The position numbers were made by a program, and so were the translations under genes. Below the pieces are notes generated by a model. It worked only from the letters and a program-made list of their open reading frames with translations, was not told the DNA's origin and searched no databases. Of a DNA stretch of 64,000 nucleotides, positions 29,841 through 40,663 are shown one piece after another; the first letter of the stretch is position 1, and each line of letters starts with the position of its first letter. This stretch comes from an uncultured Methanosarcinales archaeon. GTDB lineage: Archaea; Nanobdellota; Nanobdellia; Woesearchaeales; ARS49. The DNA lies in assembly GCA_964550175.1 (NCBI GenBank), contig CAZJXP010000001.1:248294-312293 (forward strand), in the 5' to 3' direction.

Positions 29841-29883
29841 AAAACAGTCTAAGCGATTGTTTTTTAGGTGCGTTTCGCAGGAA

Positions 29884-29930
29884 AAACCGGAAGATTTGCG
29901 GAAAAAGCGGAAGAATTGCGGAAAATCGCT
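29884..29930. repeat. 2.5 tandem copies of a 20-bp direct repeat (aaaaagcggaagaattgcgg)
   Basis: ccggaagatttgcgg aaaaagcggaagaattgcgg aaaatcgc. Lies upstream of, or in the extended 5' end of, the subtilase gene. Confidence 0.5.
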
Positions 29931-29997
29931 TGGCTCCAATATAAAGAAAACGCTAACTCTAACGACGAAACAAAACGGGGCGGTAAAAAGTTTACGT

Positions 29998-31758
29998 CTA
30001 CAAGAATGTCATATTTCTGCACTTAAGAGAATGCGCCAGAAGCACCAGTTTCTTGAGGTCTTCCGTCTTAACGGGCTTCGTAATCGGGAACGTGACCGGC
30101 CCGTCGCACCATTTCTGGAACGCGGCCTGCAGCTTGAGCTGGTGCTCGGCAGACGCTTTCGTGACAAATAGCTTCGCTCCCTTCGGCAACACGCCTTTCT
30201 GCGCGACCTTGACGATGTCCGCCTTAGTCAAGCCGTTCTTTTTCGCGAACTCGGCAAACAGCGGATGCACCTCCAGCCCATCAGCGAATTTAACAGCATA
30301 GGATAACGGTTCAAGCATCTTCACGCCCGCGATTGCCGTAACGGCGCTCGGAATTATCGCGGTGACTGAGGCGTTGCGCGTTCCCTTGCTTTTCTTGTCC
30401 TTCGCGTCGAAATTCGGGAACGAGCCGCGCTTCGCCAACTCATTCGACGCTTTTCGCGCCTCATCTGAGATGAATTTCATGAGCTTCTCAGCGTGTTCAA
30501 TCGCTTTCGGCGAATCATACGAAATGCCGAGCTTGATGAGCATTTCTGCAAACCCCATCACGCCGAGCCCGATACGTCGATGCGCTTTCGTTATCGCTTC
30601 GCTTTCAGGAGAGGGATATACCGTCACATCGATGGCGTTGTCGAGGAAATGGACGGCGTCGCGAGCGGCTTGCGCCAACCGTTCCCATTCGGGCTTGCCA
30701 TTCTTGACGAACAACGACACGTTCAAGAAACCTGAAAACCAGGACTCCAACGGCACAGGCTCGTCAAGCGTGAGCAACGGCTCGCTAGAGTGGATGATGC
30801 GCAGCGCGATAAGGTCGAAGACCTCCTTCGCCTGCAAGGAACGCGCGAGCTGGTGCGTCTTAGGGTTGACAAGATGATACGCGGACGAAGTCGAAACCGC
30901 CTTCAAGAACGCGTCCGTGAGCACGACTTGCGACGATTTCGCCGTAAATTCAAGAATGTCTGGATGGTCGATGCGCAAACTTGCGGTGTGCATGGCGCGC
31001 TTCACGACCTCGGTCGAAGTCTCGAACAGGCGCAAGAAACTCATCGGGCCAGAAGCGACGCCGTGCTTGACTTTGTCCCCTTTCGGCCGGATGTGGGAGA
31101 ATGAAATGTTCGCGTGCGTGCCCGCGTGCTGGATAAGGGCAGCTTGCTTAAGCGTTTCGAATATTTCCGGAAGCGAGTCTCCGACGCGCAGGGAAATTGC
31201 TGAAACAAGATTGTTCGACGCGCCCGCGTTCTTCAGGATGGTTTCGTTCGGCAAAAACTCGAGCTTGGACAGCATCGCAAAGAAGCGGTCTTCCACTTTT
31301 GAGAGGTTTTTCGCGTCATGCGCGCGGTCTCCTTGAGCTACGACCTTCGCGACGCGGCGGAACAGCCGCACCGGAGTCTCGGCAATCGTTCCCTGATCGG
31401 AGCGCAGCAGATACTGTTCGCCAAGAACTCGCAAGGTCGTGTCGCTCAACCCTAATTCGTCGCGCACGCCCAGGAAGGTTCTAAATTCTCGCACTTTGTG
31501 CTGGCCGCGGTACTGCAACAAGGATTTGGTCGATTGCTTGTTTTTCAGCAAAGTTTCTTCAATGATGTCTTGAACGTCCTGCGTTGTTGGAATTATAGTG
31601 GAGAACAGTTTCGTCACTGTTTGAACGACGCTTTCGGCGAGCTTCTTCGGGTTCGCCTTCGTGTTTTCAACGGCCTTCGTTATCGCGAGAAGAATCTTTT
31701 GGGGTTGGAACAACTCCAAGGATCCATCACGCTTCCGGATCTGGGCGAGTTTCGCCAT
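29998..31758 (-). CDS. ribonucleotide reductase class II-like paralog with N-terminal ATP-cone, lacking the catalytic cysteines
   Basis: The ATP-cone (AKLAQIRKRDGSLELFQPQKILLAI) and the segment GVASGPMSFLRLFETS...ASLRIDHPDILEF align to nrdJ (GGTSSGLMSFLKVFDTG...KMVCLDIDHPDILSF). The protein has only 2 Cys in total and no NPCxE motif. Confidence 0.7.
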   Translation of the reverse strand: MAKLAQIRKRDGSLELFQPQKILLAITKAVENTKANPKKLAESVVQTVTKLFSTIIPTTQDVQDIIEETLLKNKQSTKSLLQYRGQHKVREFRTFLGVRDELGLSDTTLRVLGEQYLLRSDQGTIAETPVRLFRRVAKVVAQGDRAHDAKNLSKVEDRFFAMLSKLEFLPNETILKNAGASNNLVSAISLRVGDSLPEIFETLKQAALIQHAGTHANISFSHIRPKGDKVKHGVASGPMSFLRLFETSTEVVKRAMHTASLRIDHPDILEFTAKSSQVVLTDAFLKAVSTSSAYHLVNPKTHQLARSLQAKEVFDLIALRIIHSSEPLLTLDEPVPLESWFSGFLNVSLFVKNGKPEWERLAQAARDAVHFLDNAIDVTVYPSPESEAITKAHRRIGLGVMGFAEMLIKLGISYDSPKAIEHAEKLMKFISDEARKASNELAKRGSFPNFDAKDKKSKGTRNASVTAIIPSAVTAIAGVKMLEPLSYAVKFADGLEVHPLFAEFAKKNGLTKADIVKVAQKGVLPKGAKLFVTKASAEHQLKLQAAFQKWCDGPVTFPITKPVKTEDLKKLVLLAHSLKCRNMTFL

Positions 31759-31874
31759 GCATTTTGATAGGCATGGTGCTTAATAAATATTCGTTATTTT
31801 ATATATAGAAAAGATATACTTGAGTATATAATAAGCTCCTCGGAACGTATTAATTTTAAATATAGAAAATAAGT

Positions 31875-32108
31875 CTACTCTTTTGTTACGTGAATGCAAT
31901 TGACCGGACAGTTGTCCGCGGCATCCTGGCTTTTGTCAACATCAGCGACTTCGCGCGTCTCAAGCGTGCCGTCTTTGACCTTGGCGTGCTTGCTCTCCTT
32001 CAAATCTGCGATGTTGTCATCCGCCATCTCCCAACGGGCCGGATCGACTGCTACACAACTCCCGCAACCGATGCATTTCCAGCGCTCGTGCATGATCTTG
32101 ATGGGCAT
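31875..32108 (-). CDS. 4Fe-4S ferredoxin (single cluster, Pyrococcus-type)
   Basis: CIGCGSCVAV ... CPVNCI. Confidence 0.8.
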   Translation of the reverse strand: MPIKIMHERWKCIGCGSCVAVDPARWEMADDNIADLKESKHAKVKDGTLETREVADVDKSQDAADNCPVNCIHVTKE

Positions 32109-35263: not shown

Positions 35264-36133
35264 ATGCCAATCGAATCGAATAGTCCGCACTCAGCACCAA
35301 AATCAACGTGGCCACTATTTCGACATTGGAAACAAAGTCCTTCATTTAGAGCACAAACAAAAATAGGGCTCATAAGTGGAGTTATTTTCTTCATTGCGGG
35401 ACTATTTGCATCCCCCGTAGTAACTCCCTTCGTCGCACACATTTTTGAAGTTGAAAAACAAATAGTCATCACTATTGCGCGCAGTTATCTTATCGATGAT
35501 TATGAAAAATATCCAACATATGAGCACGTATTTTTTGTAACTGGCTGCGGAACCAGAAATCTCGTATTCATGCGTAACGGAGAATATCCTGAGCAGCTTC
35601 AACAGCAAGTATTATTTTTGGGCACAACTAAAATTTGTCCTAATTGCACTCAATTTAACACTGCATTTTATAATGTTGGAAAACCGTTTAAAAATAATCT
35701 GTTTTTCCGATTTAAAAGCTCTAGTAAATTTGAATTTGATGAAGGAAGCCCTGAAGTAACCATTAGACAAAACGTAGATGCTATTCAACCTAATTTTATA
35801 ATTGAAATACTTGGCGGGATTAAACCTGTTACGGATTTAATTCATTTCAGTGGGCATATTACCCGAGTTGGTTCAATTAACACCACATGTAATGATGTTG
35901 AAAAAGATAATTGTATTTTTGTAAAGTATGATGTTGCTGTTCTAAAAAATCAGAGCAGGATTGATAAGTTTTTTGCCGAAAATATGATCAAAGAACCACT
36001 ATATGATCCTCATGGCATGCTTGAATACCAACTGAATGAACATAATGAATTTAAACTGGGGAATGCCAGTTTTTTTACTGAATTATGTAAACCGAGCGAA
36101 AAACTGGACTTACAGTCAAAACAAATTAGTTAA
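35264..36133 (+). CDS. hypothetical membrane-anchored protein (AT-rich gene)
   Basis: 289 aa with one N-terminal TM. Codon usage is visibly more AT-rich than the neighbours. Confidence 0.45.
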   Translation: MPIESNSPHSAPKSTWPLFRHWKQSPSFRAQTKIGLISGVIFFIAGLFASPVVTPFVAHIFEVEKQIVITIARSYLIDDYEKYPTYEHVFFVTGCGTRNLVFMRNGEYPEQLQQQVLFLGTTKICPNCTQFNTAFYNVGKPFKNNLFFRFKSSSKFEFDEGSPEVTIRQNVDAIQPNFIIEILGGIKPVTDLIHFSGHITRVGSINTTCNDVEKDNCIFVKYDVAVLKNQSRIDKFFAENMIKEPLYDPHGMLEYQLNEHNEFKLGNASFFTELCKPSEKLDLQSKQIS

Positions 36134-36642
36134 TACCTCGGCGCACTTTCTTCGACTTTCCTATTTTCGTATCGTGCGAGAACGAACAATAATGAGGATA
36201 GTCGATTCAGATATTTCAGCAGTTCCGGATTGACGCGAACCGTTTCGGACAGTCGCAAGCAGGATCGTTCCGCTCGGCGACAGACGGCGCGAGCCAAGTG
36301 AATGAAACACGCGGATTTGGTGCCGTTCGGCAACAAGAACGTGGTCTGTTTCTGCACCAACGTCGCGAAATGGTCGATCGCCTTCTCTAATTGAATGATG
36401 TGAGCGTCGGTGACCTGCACTTTTGCGGTGTTGGCCAATTCTGCGCCGACCGTGAACAGAAGATTCTGAGCTTTTACTATTTCTTGTCTGACGTGCCCGT
36501 CGTCCGTGTGCGCCAACGCGACGCCTAAGGCCGCGTTCGTCTCGTCAACGTCGCCGATGGCTTCGATTCTCGGATCGGTCTTCTTCAACCGTCCACCGAC
36601 AAACCCAGTCTCGCCCGCGTCCCCTGTTTTAGTGTAGTACAT
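36130..36642 (-). CDS. ATP:cob(I)alamin adenosyltransferase, PduO type
   Basis: MYYTKTGDAGETGF...RIEAIGDVDETNAALG are the PduO/MMAB N-terminal motifs. Confidence 0.85.
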   Translation of the reverse strand: MYYTKTGDAGETGFVGGRLKKTDPRIEAIGDVDETNAALGVALAHTDDGHVRQEIVKAQNLLFTVGAELANTAKVQVTDAHIIQLEKAIDHFATLVQKQTTFLLPNGTKSACFIHLARAVCRRAERSCLRLSETVRVNPELLKYLNRLSSLLFVLARYENRKVEESAPRY

Positions 36643-37058
36643 TAGTGCAAATACCCCTGAATCAATCCTAGTGTGTACGCAACGACCTTCTCATGCTCCC
36701 CTTCCCAGTGCGGCGGAACGCTGCGTTCAGCGATAAACCCCACATTCATGAGAATATCCGTCGCAGCCTCGGCAAGAATGCGCGCCTCAAGCATGTCGTT
36801 CGTTTTCAGACAGTGATCCCGAATCGGCTCCAACATGTCGTCACCATACTCCAGCAACCAACGATAGCCCTCGCAGTCTTTGCGACGAGCCATATCCCCG
36901 TTATGCTGAAAAGTCGCAGCATGTTGGTCTAACAGCTTGAACGCAATCGCAAATTTTTCGCAGGACGATTCGCTCAACTGCACCCCATTGAATTCCCGCA
37001 GTTCAGGCACTTGTAGCACGAACCGTTTCTTACAGTCACGTGGCCGCAGGAAGAGCAA
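36642..37058 (-). CDS. hypothetical protein, start uncertain
   Basis: The ORF overlaps the nrdJ 3' end by 85 nt. A TTG at 36977 preceded by ggggtg, or the ATG at MARRK, would remove the overlap. Confidence 0.35.
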   Translation of the reverse strand: MLFLRPRDCKKRFVLQVPELREFNGVQLSESSCEKFAIAFKLLDQHAATFQHNGDMARRKDCEGYRWLLEYGDDMLEPIRDHCLKTNDMLEARILAEAATDILMNVGFIAERSVPPHWEGEHEKVVAYTLGLIQGYLH

Positions 37059-40045
37059 GCGGGCGCGTCACCCATCATCTTGCCCATCGACTGCTGGAAG
37101 CCCGAGACGTCGCTTTCCATCTTCGGAGCCTCGTAGTTCGTCAATGCAGCCTGGACGTCGACCTGCTGCGCGACGGGACCGGGGCCTTCGCTGATCTTGA
37201 CTTCGTCCATCGTGGTCGGCTTGACGTGCAAAAAGTCCGTTCGGCCAAGATATTCGAATCCCAAGATTCGGAACACCAAGTCGATAATCGACGTGCACAT
37301 GCGGATGTTCGGATGGTCGGTCATGCCGTTCGGCTCGAAGCGTGTGAAGGTGAACTTCTCCACGAACTTCTCCAACGGAACGCCGTACTGCAATCCAATC
37401 GACACGGCAATCGCGAAGCAGTTCACGAGTGAACGATACGCGGCGCCTTCCTTGTGCATGTCGATGAAAATCTCGCCGATCTTGCCGTTGTCGTACTCGC
37501 CCGTGCGGAGGAAAATCTTGTGCCCCGCAACGGTCGACTCGATGGTGATGCCCTTTCGCTTAACAGGCAATCCGAGCTTCTCGCCGTGCTTCAACCCAGT
37601 GTATTCCTGCATGACCACGGTCGGCTCGACCTTCGCATCCGCCTTTGAGTCTGATTTCGTGTTCAAGGGTTGCGACGCCTTGCAACCATCTCTATACAAC
37701 GCAATCGCTTTGAGTCCCAATCGCCAGCCTTCGACGTAGATCTTCTCGATTTCTTCCACGGTCGTGCTGTTCGGGATGTTGACCGTCTTCGAGATGGCGC
37801 CCGAGATGAACGGCTGCACGGCCGCCATCATCTTGATGTGCCCCATCGGGTCGATGAATCGCTTGCCGATGCCGCAGACGTTTGCGCAGTCGAACACGGC
37901 CGCGTGCTCCGGGTTCAAGCCCGGAGCTCCTTCAAGCGTCTGAGCTCCTTCGATGAACACCTTCGCCTCGTCAATCTGCTCCTTGCTCAATCCCTTGTTG
38001 ATGAGCGTCTTCGGGTTGATGTGCGGGGTCCAGTCCGTCCACGTCTTGGCCTTTTGCACGGCCTCTTCGGCTTCGCGCACTTGGTCGGGAGTGAAGCCCA
38101 TCTTGAGCAGCGCCTCGTGATGCACGTGCGGCGCCCCCTCGAACGTGTTGTGGCCCAACACATACTCGAGCATCTCGCCCATGTCGTCCTCGGAATAGCC
38201 CAACGACCGCAAGGCGCGGATGATGCTGTTGTTGACAATCTTGAAGTATCCGCCGCCCGCGAGCTTCTTCCACTTGACGAGCGCGAATTCGGGCTCGACG
38301 CCCGTGGTGTCGCAATCCATCAGCAGTCCGATGGTTCCGGTCGGCGCGATGACGGTGGCTTGCGCGTTTCGGTAGCCGTACTTTTCGCCCAACTCGACCG
38401 CGTGGTCCCAGTCTTCTCTCGCGGCCTTGAGCAAATCCGCCGGGCAGAAACGGACGTCCAACTGGTACGCCGCGTCACGGTGCTTGCGCATCACGCGCAA
38501 ACAAGGCTCCTTGTTCTTCGCATAGCCCGGGAACGGTCCCTTGACCGCGGCCATTTCGGCCGACGCGAGGTACGCGTGACCGGTCATGATTGCGGTCAAT
38601 GCGGCAGCGATTGCTCGGCCCTTATCCGAGTCGTACGGCACGCCTTGGACCATCAATAACGTCCCGAGGTTTGCGTAACCGAGTCCTAAGGTTCGGTAAT
38701 CGTGGCTGTTCTGCGCGATCTGCTGCGTCGGGTACGATGACAAATCAACAAGAATTTCCTGCGCGACGAAGAACGTACGACACGCGTGGCGGTAGCCTTC
38801 GATGTCGAAGACGCCATCATCGCTCAAGAATTTCATCAAATTAACGCTTGATAAGTTGCATGCCGTGTCGTCCAAGAACATGTATTCCGAGCACGGGTTC
38901 GACGCGTTGATGCGGCCGGTGTTCGAGCACGTGTGCCAGTCATTGATGGTCGTGTCCAATTGCACGCCCGGGTCGGCGCACGCCCACGCGGCGTCAGCGA
39001 TCTTGCGCATCATGAATTTAGCATCATATTCCTTCGCGACCTTGCCGTTCGTTCGCCACTTCGTCGCGAACGTGCTACCGGTCAAGTAGGCGTTCATGAA
39101 TTCGTCCGACAATCGGACGCTGTTGTTCGAGTTCTGGCCCGCGACGGTCGCGTAGGCTTCGCCGTTGAAGTCTGCCGGGAATCCGCCGTGCTCGATCAAA
39201 ATCTTGGCCTTCTTCTCCTCATTCGCCTTCCATTCCACAAACGAAAGGATGTCCGGGTGGTCGATGTCCAAGCAGACCATCTTGGCCGCTCGACGAGTCG
39301 TTCCGCCGGACTTGATCGCGCCCGCGCCGGTGTCAAAGACTTTCAAGAAGCTCATCAATCCTGAACTGGTGCCGCCGCCGGACAACTTCTCGCCCGAGCC
39401 TCGCAACTTGGAAAAGTTCGTGCCGGTGCCGGAGCCGTACTTGAAGACCGTGGCTTCCTGGCCTAAGAGACTGAAAATGTTCCGGATGTCGTCCTGCACG
39501 CTTTGGATAAAGCAAGCCGAGCACTGCGGACGCTGGTAGGCGTTCGCCATGACGTCGATCTTGTTCGTCTGGAAGTTCCAGCCGAAGTTTCCCGCGCTGC
39601 CGAGAATGCCGTACTGGTGGAACAATCCGCAGTTGAACCAGACGGGCGAGTTGAACGCGCCGCGTTGGGTAAGAAGCATATACGCCAATTCGTCCTCGAA
39701 CGTGTCGGCCATCTCCTTGCCGCGGAAGTAACCGTGCTCCTCGCCATAGGTGCGGATGGTGTGAGCGATTCGGTAGACGACCTGCTTGACGTTGATTTCG
39801 GAATCCGTTCCCGGAACGCCGGCCTTTCGGAAATACTTTGAAACGACGATGTCGGTGGCGAGCTGAGACCAGGTCTTGGGGACTTCGACGTCCTTCATCT
39901 CGAACACGATGCGGCCGTCCGGCTCCTTGATGACGCTGGAGCGCTTATCGTACTCGACCATGTCGTACGGGCTCGTGCCCGAAGTGAACTTTCGCTGCAC
40001 AATCAATCCCGGAGTCTCAACTGTTACTTGCACCATTACTCGCAC
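36974..40045 (-). CDS. nrdJ: adenosylcobalamin-dependent ribonucleotide reductase, class II
   Basis: 1023 aa. NPCSEY catalytic loop, VCLDIDHPD, and a C-terminal Cys-rich zinc ribbon (CSSCGH...CYKCLNCGN). Confidence 0.9.
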   Translation of the reverse strand: MRVMVQVTVETPGLIVQRKFTSGTSPYDMVEYDKRSSVIKEPDGRIVFEMKDVEVPKTWSQLATDIVVSKYFRKAGVPGTDSEINVKQVVYRIAHTIRTYGEEHGYFRGKEMADTFEDELAYMLLTQRGAFNSPVWFNCGLFHQYGILGSAGNFGWNFQTNKIDVMANAYQRPQCSACFIQSVQDDIRNIFSLLGQEATVFKYGSGTGTNFSKLRGSGEKLSGGGTSSGLMSFLKVFDTGAGAIKSGGTTRRAAKMVCLDIDHPDILSFVEWKANEEKKAKILIEHGGFPADFNGEAYATVAGQNSNNSVRLSDEFMNAYLTGSTFATKWRTNGKVAKEYDAKFMMRKIADAAWACADPGVQLDTTINDWHTCSNTGRINASNPCSEYMFLDDTACNLSSVNLMKFLSDDGVFDIEGYRHACRTFFVAQEILVDLSSYPTQQIAQNSHDYRTLGLGYANLGTLLMVQGVPYDSDKGRAIAAALTAIMTGHAYLASAEMAAVKGPFPGYAKNKEPCLRVMRKHRDAAYQLDVRFCPADLLKAAREDWDHAVELGEKYGYRNAQATVIAPTGTIGLLMDCDTTGVEPEFALVKWKKLAGGGYFKIVNNSIIRALRSLGYSEDDMGEMLEYVLGHNTFEGAPHVHHEALLKMGFTPDQVREAEEAVQKAKTWTDWTPHINPKTLINKGLSKEQIDEAKVFIEGAQTLEGAPGLNPEHAAVFDCANVCGIGKRFIDPMGHIKMMAAVQPFISGAISKTVNIPNSTTVEEIEKIYVEGWRLGLKAIALYRDGCKASQPLNTKSDSKADAKVEPTVVMQEYTGLKHGEKLGLPVKRKGITIESTVAGHKIFLRTGEYDNGKIGEIFIDMHKEGAAYRSLVNCFAIAVSIGLQYGVPLEKFVEKFTFTRFEPNGMTDHPNIRMCTSIIDLVFRILGFEYLGRTDFLHVKPTTMDEVKISEGPGPVAQQVDVQAALTNYEAPKMESDVSGFQQSMGKMMGDAPACSSCGHVTVRNGSCYKCLNCGNSMGCS

Positions 40046-40046
40046 C

Positions 40047-40502
40047 TCATTTTTCTTTCTTCAGCATATTGATTTCTTTCTCGAACTGGGCCAAATCCCT
40101 GAATGAGCGGTACACGCTGGCGTAGCGCACATACGCGACTTGGTCTAATGTTTTCAGTTGCGCCATGACTAATTCTCCGACTTTCTTCGACGAAATTTCC
40201 TGCCGGTCGCCCTTGCGCAACGACGCTTCGATCGCCGCGACGCTGGCCTCGATCTTTTCCCGGCCGATGGGACGCTTTTCGCACGCCTTGAAGAAGCCAC
40301 GCATGAGCTTTTCCTTGTTGAACGGCTCTCGCCTGCCATCTTTCTTCACGACCGACAAGTCGACCGATTCCAGATGCTCGTACGTCGTAAATCGCTTCTC
40401 GCAATCGAGGCATTCCCTTCTGCGACGGGTTTCCGAGGAGTCGGACGTCTCGCGGCTGTCCACCACTTTCGACTCGGGATGCAAACAAAACGGGCATTTC
40501 AT
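40047..40502 (-). CDS. nrdR: transcriptional repressor NrdR (zinc ribbon plus ATP-cone)
   Basis: MKCPFC...CLDCEKRFTTYE zinc ribbon followed by an ATP-cone. Directly upstream of nrdJ. Confidence 0.85.
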   Translation of the reverse strand: MKCPFCLHPESKVVDSRETSDSSETRRRRECLDCEKRFTTYEHLESVDLSVVKKDGRREPFNKEKLMRGFFKACEKRPIGREKIEASVAAIEASLRKGDRQEISSKKVGELVMAQLKTLDQVAYVRYASVYRSFRDLAQFEKEINMLKKEK

Positions 40503-40623
40503 TGGTCATAGTTCTCGAAAAGAAATTTCGTTGCACAACTTATTGGGCATACTTATGCGACGGTCTCCGACGAGCCCGACGGCAGAAAAAACACCATTAG
40601 TTGTGGTCTCCCCTCTTTTCATT

Positions 40624-40663
40624 CCACAATCATTCTGTTTTTAATCATTTATATATATTGTGG
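40624..40663. promoter_or_regulatory. palindromic AT-rich element resembling a split NrdR box (CCACAAT-n26-ATTGTGG, with internal tatatat)
   Basis: On the nrdR strand it reads ACCACAATATATATaaatg...cagaatgATTGTGG, about 125-165 nt upstream of the nrdR ATG. It resembles the bacterial NrdR-box consensus acaCwAtATaTwGtgt. Confidence 0.3.

Follow-up and report, generated by a model that had tools for sequence, protein, structure and literature searches.

An ATP-cone NrdJ homolog of Woesearchaeota without the catalytic elements of ribonucleotide reductase: a putative nucleotide-binding pseudoenzyme

Analysis of the window, a 64,000-nucleotide stretch of archaeal DNA to which all coordinates refer, led to an open reading frame on the minus strand (29998..31758) which encodes a Cys-poor, finger-loop-less, ATP-cone NrdJ-like protein of 586 amino acids. 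The protein has lost the finger loop, both redox cysteines, specificity loop 2, the phosphate-binding PTGT loop and the Cys-rich domain of class II ribonucleotide reductases (RNR), and we consider it probable that it is maintained as a non-catalytic pseudoenzyme with putative nucleotide binding. Similar dead copies, which appear to have arisen independently and to be kept by selection in related archaea, point to an undescribed non-enzymatic role. All genes, protein segments and upstream regions given below are, like this reading frame, on the minus strand.

Gene, domain architecture and orthology

The reading frame starts with ATG, and its exact DNA was found twice, in two independently assembled short-read contigs, which rules out an assembly artefact. 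The domain order of the protein is ATP-cone, RNR all-alpha domain and RNR 10-stranded barrel. The ATP-cone (aa 6-88, 31495..31743) is well preserved and scores 55.5 bits against Pfam PF03477 (cutoff 25.8), in agreement with the sequence-only reading, which had noted that this domain is kept. The all-alpha N-domain (Ribonuc_red_lgN, aa 104-182, 31213..31449) scores 50.7 bits against PF00317, and the barrel is matched by Ribonuc_red_lgC (PF02867, 2e-43) in two separated stretches. Scores for the NCBIfam NrdJ equivalogs are far under the cutoffs (367.9 vs 961 for NF006417 and 273 vs 399.95 for TIGR02504), and the sources searched give the protein no name. An AF2 model has a pLDDT of 78.6 and a pTM of 0.78, with aa 450-486 predicted to be disordered (pLDDT <50); the top Foldseek matches of the predicted structure are NrdJ structures from T. 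maritima (TM ~0.71). A Pfam search revealed no recognisable DNA-binding domain, including the Zn-ribbon of NrdR type (PF22811), and neither a partner nor an output domain is evident.

The window also encodes an intact TSCPD-type class II RNR of 1023 amino acids (long NrdJ, 36974..40045; NF005122, 1295.8 bits vs a cutoff of 859). This enzyme possesses the NPCSE motif, both redox cysteines and 23 cysteines in total, is 83% identical to its ortholog in L004, and contains no ATP-cone according to Pfam. Directly upstream of its gene lies the gene for NrdR (Zn-ribbon and ATP-cone, 40047..40502; conserved in L004, L006 and L008), and downstream that for a PduO-type ATP:cob(I)alamin adenosyltransferase (36130..36642; conserved in L004 and L008). 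The distance between the NrdR gene and the 586-aa gene is 8 kb. The long nrdJ system makes the ATP-cone copy redundant in the window lineage.

The alignment of the 586-aa protein to long NrdJ that was proposed earlier could be reproduced (24% identity, E=2e-20) and includes the motifs G.SGxMSFL and IDHPDIL.F. The description of the protein as a dead RNR paralog held with respect to catalysis, but not with respect to a derivation from the neighbouring enzyme: a recent paralog of long NrdJ is ruled out by the low identity, the different subclass and the presence of an intact syntenic ortholog in sister genomes. Its syntenic counterpart and ortholog is the ATP-cone NrdJ of ca. 696 amino acids typical of Woesearchaeota. 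The order ferredoxin, ATP-cone nrdJ, subtilase is conserved in L004 and L006, as is the nearby nrdR-nrdJ(long)-adenosyltransferase cluster, and the 4Fe-4S ferredoxin gene directly upstream (77 aa, 31875..32108) is syntenic with that of intact orthologs. In L006 the ATP-cone copy (P0003) is intact and occurs alongside a long NrdJ. In the comparison of the window with L004 and L006, neighbouring genes are 73-83% identical, whereas the ATP-cone nrdJ-like gene reaches only ca. 48%. Identity to the nearest intact relatives is 51-56%; relatives above 56% were absent from 5.8 billion protein clusters, GTDB genomes and JGI contigs, with no match above ca. 48% in the GTDB genomes and JGI metagenome contigs.

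Lost and retained elements

For comparison we used a reference set of 116 relatives of ca. 696 amino acids, the ATP-cone NrdJ proteins of Woesearchaeota, than which the 586-aa protein is about 110 residues shorter. As the sequence-only reading had counted, the protein contains two cysteines (C551 and C580), and none is located near the barrel centre. That reading had further pointed to the replacement of the Cys in VCLDIDHPD; this Cys is indeed absent, but it is not a conserved catalytic residue, and ATP-cone NrdJs have Ile or Val at this position. The true first redox Cys (T. maritima C134) is part of the SACF motif and is lost as well (31189..31206), with the family sequence LSACFVLP changed to VSA-ISLR. 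Specificity loop 2 (K202-G209 in T. maritima NrdJ numbering, HMMER alignment) is reduced to a remnant (30985..31011) in which an in-frame deletion of 5 residues changed the family sequence IKQGGKRRGANMG to VK-----RAMHTA.

The absence of the NPCxE loop, also claimed earlier, was found in two alignments. In the MAFFT alignment of the family, the NPCGE finger loop is missing as a deletion of 23-24 residues, which removed the segment NRxNPT...STNPCGEQPL; at the junction (30727..30780) the second redox Cys is replaced, with ESCNLGS changed to ESWFSGF. When aligned to T. maritima NrdJ with HMMER, the protein has E, L and T opposite N320, C322 and E324, and W opposite C333; catalytic cysteines conserved at shifted positions were not found. 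The PTGT/SGIEP region (30301..30363) is eroded from IAPTGTISIIAxxTSGIEPLF to IIPSAVTAI-----AGVKMLEPLS. The protein ends prematurely with LKCRNMTFL (29998..30027) and misses 37 residues, including the end of the VYRYGSK strand and the Cys-rich Zn domain (CRD, as defined in PMC5704485), which is present in all close relatives. No remnant of the C-terminus was found downstream or in other frames, and the gene revealed no hidden frameshifts or out-of-frame remnants. Except for the finger loop of long NrdJ itself, no finger-loop or CRD fragment occurs elsewhere in the window, which rules out a split gene within the window. Judged from its sequence, the protein cannot act as a ribonucleotide reductase, since it has retained neither the radical Cys nor the redox Cys pair, and the finger-loop Asn and Glu, the PTGT loop, loop 2 and the C-terminal Cys-rich domain are missing as well.

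The decay is selective and not uniform. When columns conserved in at least 90% of the family alignment are taken as invariant, the ATP-cone retains 14 of 15 (93%); the basic residues K9, R10 and K21 of its N-terminal hairpin are present, and likewise E15. These residues presumably correspond to residues of E. coli NrdA. The all-alpha N-domain retains 27/35 invariant columns, and the barrel core formed by aa 345-460 (30379..30726), which is predicted with a pLDDT of 86-95 by AF2, retains 37/43 (86%). Around the specificity site, the core residues D194, R224 and SGP-F241 are retained too. Catalytic segments keep only 31/56, 16/49 and 32/76 columns (33-55%), and in the C-terminal third, the site of much erosion and considered here with regard to adenosylcobalamin binding, 42% are retained. 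The unevenness across segments is highly significant (chi2 p=4e-9).

Maintained protein, relic or subunit

The main alternative, that the gene is a late-stage decaying relic, made redundant by takeover of nrdR-nrdJ(long) and eroded in a deletion-biased manner without function, its frame simply not yet broken, is rather unlikely, even though several observations agree with it. The window lineage is a singleton without close relatives, and the branch of the 586-aa protein is 3-4 times longer than those of its relatives, with acceleration in every segment, although only ca. 2-fold in the ATP-cone; dS is saturated against every relative. Of the family-invariant columns 43% are altered or deleted, all indels are deletions, and the predicted model contains the disordered segment mentioned above. 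Furthermore, the orthologs form a graded series from intact (P0003) via mildly altered (P0002) and lacking the radical Cys (P0008) to the heavily eroded 586-aa protein. Against a relic stands that none of the 19 internal deletions shifts the frame, while in neutral simulations an open frame survived in at most 0.2% of replicates at 20% amino acid divergence and in none of 1500 at 39%. Moreover, erosion centres on the catalytic elements and spares the ATP-cone and aa 345-460.

Conservation of the upstream region also argues against a relic. This conserved promoter region (31759..31874) shows 77% nucleotide identity to that of P0002, the nearest relative, whereas the coding sequences share 62%. 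It carries a TATA-like element TTTATTAA (31780-31787) at 22-29 nt before the ATG and two TTTCTATATAGAAA-like palindromes (31798-31811 and 31855-31868); a further palindrome is located centrally. The two TTTCTATATAGAAA-like palindromes are not canonical NrdR boxes, as they have C-N6-G cores and a spacing of 57 bp, whereas NrdR boxes have C-N8-G cores spaced by ca. 31 bp (PMC9110341).

A further argument against a relic is a clade that has reached the same final state independently. This dead-4 clade consists of four Cys-less woesearchaeal proteins of 595-603 amino acids, P0176 (MBI4143968.1), P0201, P0175 and P0318 (MAF34765.1), which are 42-47% identical to one another; two members of such Cys-less NrdJ-like proteins are currently annotated as hypothetical protein. 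According to the alignment their architecture is that of the 586-aa protein: the ATP-cone is kept and Cys1, finger loop, Cys2 and CRD are lost. The clade is under strong purifying selection, with a dN/dS of ca. 0.06 obtained from a pN of 0.079 vs a pS of 0.64. In L008 the dead-4 gene sits near nrdR-nrdJ(long)-adenosyltransferase, but the genes flanking the dead copies show no consistent overlap between the window and the clade.

An independent origin of the dead-4 clade is most likely because of the low identity to the 586-aa protein (34-39%, no higher than that of intact P0003), the position of L008 as outgroup to the window, L004 and L006 by species calibration (long NrdJ 61% vs 80-83% identical), and the different deletion boundaries. 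A profile of the clade gave more than 1000 bits with its own four members, and the 586-aa protein was absent from the best 120 matches. Several identical derived residues in the 586-aa protein and the clade are convergent substitutions. In a full-length NJ tree all long branches cluster together with 41-43% support, which looks like long-branch attraction; trees of slowly evolving regions place the 586-aa protein with the syntenic subclade in 57% of bootstraps and with the long branches in 36.5%. Membership of the dead-4 clade by descent is thus opposed by the slow-region trees, the identity gradients and the species calibration. The clade is older and probably of independent origin, with weak tree support. 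P0008 represents a third lineage in which the radical Cys has just been lost; it is 97% identical to P0422, which comes from a different source and also lacks this Cys. Tentatively, we propose that an ancestral ATP-cone NrdJ was repeatedly and convergently converted into a non-catalytic ATP/dATP-sensing, possibly dNTP-sensing, protein in Woesearchaeota that harbor nrdR-nrdJ(long), at least two times and with a third lineage at the first step. In this conversion the finger loop, the redox cysteines and the Cys-rich tail would be removed, and the cone, the dimer interface and the barrel scaffold kept.

By analogy with inactive subunits that aid active ones, the dead protein might form a heteromer with long NrdJ or NrdR and so provide dATP/ATP-dependent control. 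It would then supply the ATP-cone that long NrdJ lacks, for which the retained cone and dimer-interface residues and the vicinity of the nrdR-nrdJ(long) cluster in the window and L008 can be quoted. We regard such a regulatory subunit as improbable: the two NrdJ proteins are only distantly related over the barrel (24%) and differ in their dimer-helix sequences, the genes have no co-operonic arrangement, and co-occurrence with long NrdJ is not specific to dead forms since L006 combines it with an intact ATP-cone NrdJ. That the protein is still a reductase or another radical enzyme, by means of shifted residues or a piece provided in trans as in split NrdJa+b with a separately encoded CRD (PMC5704485), is hardly conceivable in spite of the predicted RNR fold, as C551 and C580 lie away from the barrel centre, both alignments (MAFFT and HMMER) lack the finger loop, and the window encodes no such separate piece.

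The preferred explanation remains that of a maintained pseudoenzyme. It starts from a clade that carries a complete second system nearby, with nrdR, a TSCPD-type nrdJ encoding ca. 1000 amino acids and the adenosyltransferase gene. Given this redundancy, all radical and redox chemistry has been lost from the ATP-cone copy of the window lineage, while the reading frame, promoter region, ATP-cone, N-helical domain, specificity-site core and aa 345-460 appear to have stayed under constraint. Because of this constraint the gene is most likely still expressed as a folded, non-catalytic protein. Its mode of action most likely involves nucleotide binding: ATP or dATP would bind to the ATP-cone, and a dNTP possibly to the retained dimer-interface site, and binding would change the oligomeric or interaction state of the protein. 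Rather than reduce nucleotides, it would thus report or buffer the dNTP/ATP status, although an allosteric sensor function is something we can only infer.

Implications and comparison with known systems

RNR large subunits are essential enzymes, and to our knowledge the only well-known inactive homologs of the α subunit are viral (UL45/M45 of betaherpesviruses). The sequence-only reading was aware of no earlier description of such an arrangement, and in the searchable literature we likewise found none for a class II RNR of cellular origin that is catalytically dead, has kept its ATP-cone and is under purifying selection. If the repeated conversion proposed above is true, the window gene would be one instance of a novel class of cellular nucleotide sensors or regulators derived from RNR. 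A maintained protein of this kind would show that the allosteric apparatus of RNR can outlive the enzyme and be reused. Such proteins would offer a natural system of ATP-cone plus scaffold only for studies of cone-driven regulation, and the orthologous series from intact via Cys-less to fully trimmed forms a rare stepwise view of pseudoenzyme formation. For annotation, it means that short NrdJ-like reading frames in DPANN genomes should not be counted as functional RNRs in metabolic reconstructions.

The R1 homologs of betaherpesviruses (HCMV UL45, MCMV M45 and HHV-6B U28) are inactive yet retained and repurposed (PMC5469499, PMC11772975). They resemble the 586-aa protein, as judged from the losses in the latter, in being RNR large-subunit homologs without enzyme activity, but they are viral rather than cellular or archaeal, derive from class I enzymes, act on host innate-immunity proteins via added motifs, and have no retained ATP-cone sensing role. 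NrdR, which represses transcription of nrd genes, is likewise non-catalytic, and its ATP-cone senses ATP/dATP and changes the oligomeric state (PMC9110341). It differs from the 586-aa protein in carrying a Zn-ribbon for DNA binding and in lacking the RNR barrel.

The dimeric ATP-cone class II NrdJ proteins of Woesearchaeota and other archaea have the same domain order as the 586-aa protein, and those of Woesearchaeota also share the syntenic position and the conserved promoter of its gene. They differ in possessing the thiyl-radical Cys with its Asn and Glu, the redox Cys pair, loop 2, the PTGT loop and the Cys-rich domain. T. maritima NrdJ (PDB 1xjj and 3o0n) is the structural reference, to which the predicted fold compares with a TM of 0.71. 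The closest parallel in losses is the dead-4 clade, in which the same elements are gone, loop 2 is shortened as well and the protein is likewise truncated just past the last barrel strand.

Catalytic losses in the window ORF

A minus-strand ORF spanning 29998..31758 starts with ATG and encodes a polypeptide of 586 amino acids. Two contigs that were assembled independently from the short reads of other runs contain stretches of 9 kb and 7.6 kb of the window as identical DNA, which rules out an assembly artefact. Both contigs stop at position 29888, within a TTCCGC-rich repeat-like stretch (~29880-29940) between the stop of the dead nrdJ and the subtilase body; these ends may reflect heterogeneity among strains, or a rearrangement junction tied to the C-terminal truncation. 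The sister genome L006 has a 128-aa gene between nrdJ and subtilase that is missing at this place in the window.

Pfam detects an ATP-cone (aa 6-88, 55.5 bits), an RNR all-alpha domain (aa 104-182) and the RNR barrel in two separate stretches. The sequence-only reading had described a homolog of the long NrdJ encoded at 36974..40045 (minus strand), with an N-terminal ATP-cone and just two cysteines. This is borne out by BLASTP (E=2e-20, 24% identity, covering exactly the motifs quoted), by the presence of 14 of the 15 invariant cone columns, and by the finding of only C551 and C580.

The losses were defined by aligning the protein with 12, and then 116, ATP-cone NrdJ relatives. The first redox Cys (T. 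maritima C134, numbering from the HMMER alignment) is lost, with VSA-ISLR in place of LSACFVLP, and the GGGTG strand has become GTHAN. Loop 1 lacks 2 residues, specificity loop 2 lacks 5 (IKQGGKRRGANMG to VK-----RAMHTA), and 10 are missing from the segment following DHPDILEF. The entire finger loop (..NRxNPT..STNPCGEQPL, with T. maritima N320/C322/E324) is gone as a block of 23-24 residues, the second redox Cys (C333) has disappeared in the change of ESCNLGS to ESWFSGF, and the PTGT/SGIEP region is rewritten and 5 residues shorter. At the C-terminus the final 37 residues are missing; these would complete the last barrel strand and supply the Cys-rich Zn domain, which Loderer et al. showed to be required for turnover (PMC5704485). 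In an HMMER alignment to T. maritima NrdJ the gap falls elsewhere, with N320/C322/E324 opposite E/L/T and C333 opposite W, and the NPCxE loop is again missing, as had been proposed. The long NrdJ's Cys in VCLDIDHPD, formerly taken as catalytic, occupies no conserved catalytic position: the corresponding residue in ATP-cone NrdJs is I/V. For every NCBIfam NrdJ equivalog the score is far under the cutoff. The protein lacks every catalytic mark of the NrdJ family, to which it belongs by descent; it is almost certainly catalytically dead, its losses leaving it unable to reduce nucleotides.

Origin and divergence of the ATP-cone nrdJ

In a protein collection of 5.8 billion clusters the nearest relatives are at most 51-56% identical, and almost all are ATP-cone NrdJs of 690-706 amino acids from Woesearchaeota and other archaea. 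The order ferredoxin, ATP-cone nrdJ, subtilase is kept in both sister genomes, L004 (protein P0008) and L006 (P0003, intact), as is the nearby cluster of nrdR, TSCPD-type nrdJ (~1020 aa), small ORFs, PduO-type adenosyltransferase and SOD. The group therefore inherited both NrdJ types from its ancestor, and the gene is no duplicate of the neighbouring long NrdJ, of which the sequence-only reading had called it a paralog: it is a separate, ancestral ATP-cone nrdJ. Identity to L004 and L006 is 80-83% for the long NrdJ, 77-79% for NrdR, 79% for SOD (L004 only) and 73-75% for the ferredoxin, and only 48-49% for the ATP-cone NrdJ, against the 70-86% usual for this protein within the subclade. The protein's branch is 3-4 times as long as those of its relatives. 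Among the 274 columns with a conservation of 90% or more in the family, it differs at 117 (median 6 for the other 116 members).

The 4Fe-4S ferredoxin gene (31875-32108, minus strand) lies directly upstream of the ATP-cone nrdJ, also in L003, L004, L006 and L007, and may encode a reductant partner dedicated to the intact enzyme, kept beside the dead copy. The nearest relative, P0002 (contig L005, 131-2221), keeps all Cys and shows mild decay (NSCGE, THTGT, a changed loop 2, 20 deviations at invariant columns); constraint on the lineage may already have been relaxed.

The region 36130-40502 (minus strand), encoding NrdR, the TSCPD-type 1023-aa NrdJ, a small ORF and the PduO-type adenosyltransferase, is kept in L004, L006 and the more distant genome L008. 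It resembles the nrdR-nrdJ operon of Streptomyces, here in a Woesearchaeota/DPANN-type genome; NrdR has been reported in only 'some archaea' (PMC9110341). Conserved palindromes lie upstream of nrdR at 40591-40607 and 40624-40663, one (ACCACAACTAATGGTGT) with the CAC-N8-GTG form of the bacterial NrdR box and the other of the form CCACAAT-N26-ATTGTGG. Together with a CCCTATATGTTGTGTAT-like element conserved in L004 and L006, they are candidate archaeal NrdR boxes.

Maintained protein or relic

We consider it fairly probable that the gene encodes a maintained non-catalytic protein. The alternative, a non-functional relic whose frame is not yet interrupted, seems unlikely. It draws on the lineage being a singleton, since no closer relative occurs in any collection searched, and on the saturation of synonymous sites against the relatives, which makes a direct dN/dS for the gene impossible. 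Plain neutral decay accords poorly with the pattern of erosion, which is strongly non-uniform (chi2 p=4e-9): invariant columns are kept at 14/15 in the cone, 27/35 in the N-helical domain and 37/43 in aa 345-460, as compared to 31/56 in aa 183-272, 16/49 in aa 273-344 and 32/76 from aa 461 to the end. The acceleration specific to this branch is ~2-fold in the cone and aa 345-460 and 5-8-fold in the catalytic segments. All 19 internal deletion runs in the family alignment are in frame and there are no insertions; tblastn with intact relatives gave one single-frame HSP and no out-of-frame or downstream remnants. When random point substitutions were simulated on the P0002 or P0003 coding sequence, 0.1-0.2% of replicates were still stop-free at 20% amino acid divergence, at most 0.07% at 29% and 0/1500 at 39%; the window-specific change amounts to ~39% of well-defined sites. 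The AlphaFold model also argues against decay, as it still predicts an RNR fold (pLDDT 78.6, pTM 0.78, low confidence only in aa 450-486), with T. maritima NrdJ as best structural match (TM ~0.71).

The upstream region likewise speaks against plain neutral decay: it is 77% identical to that of the nearest relative, versus 62% for the CDS, and over its 116 bp it preserves the layout found in front of intact orthologs. A pair of TTTCTATATAGAAA-like palindromes (31798-31811 and 31855-31868, 57 bp apart) flanks a central one, ATATACTCAAGTATAT (31813-31830), and a TTTATTAA element lies 22-29 nt before the ATG. The palindromes are conserved upstream of intact orthologs and recur nowhere else in the 64-kb window, and the set looks like an operator other than the canonical NrdR box.

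Other Cys-less proteins, possible function and known systems

When 1.84 billion representatives were searched exhaustively, further short proteins emerged that match the query in one unbroken stretch. Four from Woesearchaeota, P0176 (595 aa), P0201 (598 aa), P0318 (603 aa) and P0175 (603 aa, corrected start), form a tight clade, each scoring >1000 bits against the profile of the clade (next match 514 bits); two, MBI4143968.1 and MAF34765.1, are named 'hypothetical protein [Candidatus Woesearchaeota archaeon]' at NCBI. Their ATP-cones score above the Pfam cutoff, and in the alignment Cys1 and Cys2 are lost, loop 2 is shortened and the finger loop deleted; the chain ends directly past the last barrel strand, an architecture like that of the window protein. 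Identity among the four is only 42-47%, and their Cys-less state is hence old. Between P0318 and P0175 (89% aa identity) pN is 0.079 and pS 0.64, and the resulting dN/dS of ~0.06 implies that dead ATP-cone NrdJ-like proteins can persist under strong purifying selection. In the marine MAG carrying P0318, nrdR clusters with nrdJ (983 aa, TSCPD type), an ORF, adenosyltransferase and ferredoxin, 3.3 kb away from the P0318 gene. The P0175 gene call (contig L011, ~480-523) starts late at GTG; the true upstream start MGRLVLVKKRDGEIVPF gives the full cone. Genes of this clade have TTTCT-N9-AGAAA and TTTATAATA upstream. The search also returned the Cys-less representatives P0207 (629 aa) and P0223 (660 aa), and P0183, P0266 and P0235 (632-662 aa), which are without the C-terminal Cys-rich domain.

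Judged from sequence comparisons, loss of catalysis in the window lineage was probably independent of this clade, with convergence to one trimmed architecture. L008, a host genome of the clade, is an outgroup to the window, L004 and L006 (long NrdJ 61-64% versus 80-83% identity among these; NrdR 47-49% versus 77-79%). The window protein (34-39%) is no closer to the clade than intact P0003 (38-41%), and shows the same gradient of identities across the family as P0003. Its residues 1-23 are identical to those of P0002, and its promoter is closest to that of P0002. In trees from slowly evolving regions it groups with the syntenic ATP-cone NrdJ subclade in 57% of bootstraps and with the long branches in 36.5%; the full-length NJ tree groups all long branches with weak support (41-43%). 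The convergence extends to derived residues common to window protein and clade where 80% or more of intact enzymes agree: T174I, G182N, M285L, N498H, V541L and N553G. The syntenic ortholog P0008 (L004, 10001-12073) has lost only the radical Cys (STNPCGE to STS--GE), with other motifs mildly altered. This loss is common to P0422, a 97% identical protein from another source, the nearest relative (P0009, 71%) is intact, and P0008 appears to represent an early step of the same process.

The window protein keeps an intact-looking ATP-cone, and in the HMMER alignment D194, R224 and the SGP-F241 segment, also kept, correspond to T. maritima D141, R171 and S185-F190, which we take to lie around the dimer-interface specificity site. 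The conserved promoter, leaderless-type in its geometry, would still drive expression, and the protein would fold as a barrel scaffold whose cone binds ATP/dATP and whose former specificity site possibly takes up a dNTP. The output would be a nucleotide-dependent shift of oligomeric or interaction state, as in other ATP-cone proteins, NrdR among them (PMC9110341); the target may be the long NrdJ or NrdR, or the protein may simply buffer nucleotides. A specific role as nucleotide sensor or regulator is possible, and we propose it tentatively.

As the sequence-only reading had supposed, full-text literature searches gave no description of Cys-less NrdJ paralogs, and papers on a large RNR phylogeny and on RNRdb mention none. 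We regard the window protein as a pseudoenzyme from a well-known enzyme family, and the significance rests more on the recurrent, selected family uncovered than on this singleton gene. If it works at all, the protein resembles an ATP-cone sensor protein more than an RNR. In function, the nearest precedents are the enzymatically inactive R1 homologs of betaherpesviruses, which are viral, class I-derived and repurposed against host immunity (PMC5469499, PMC11772975).
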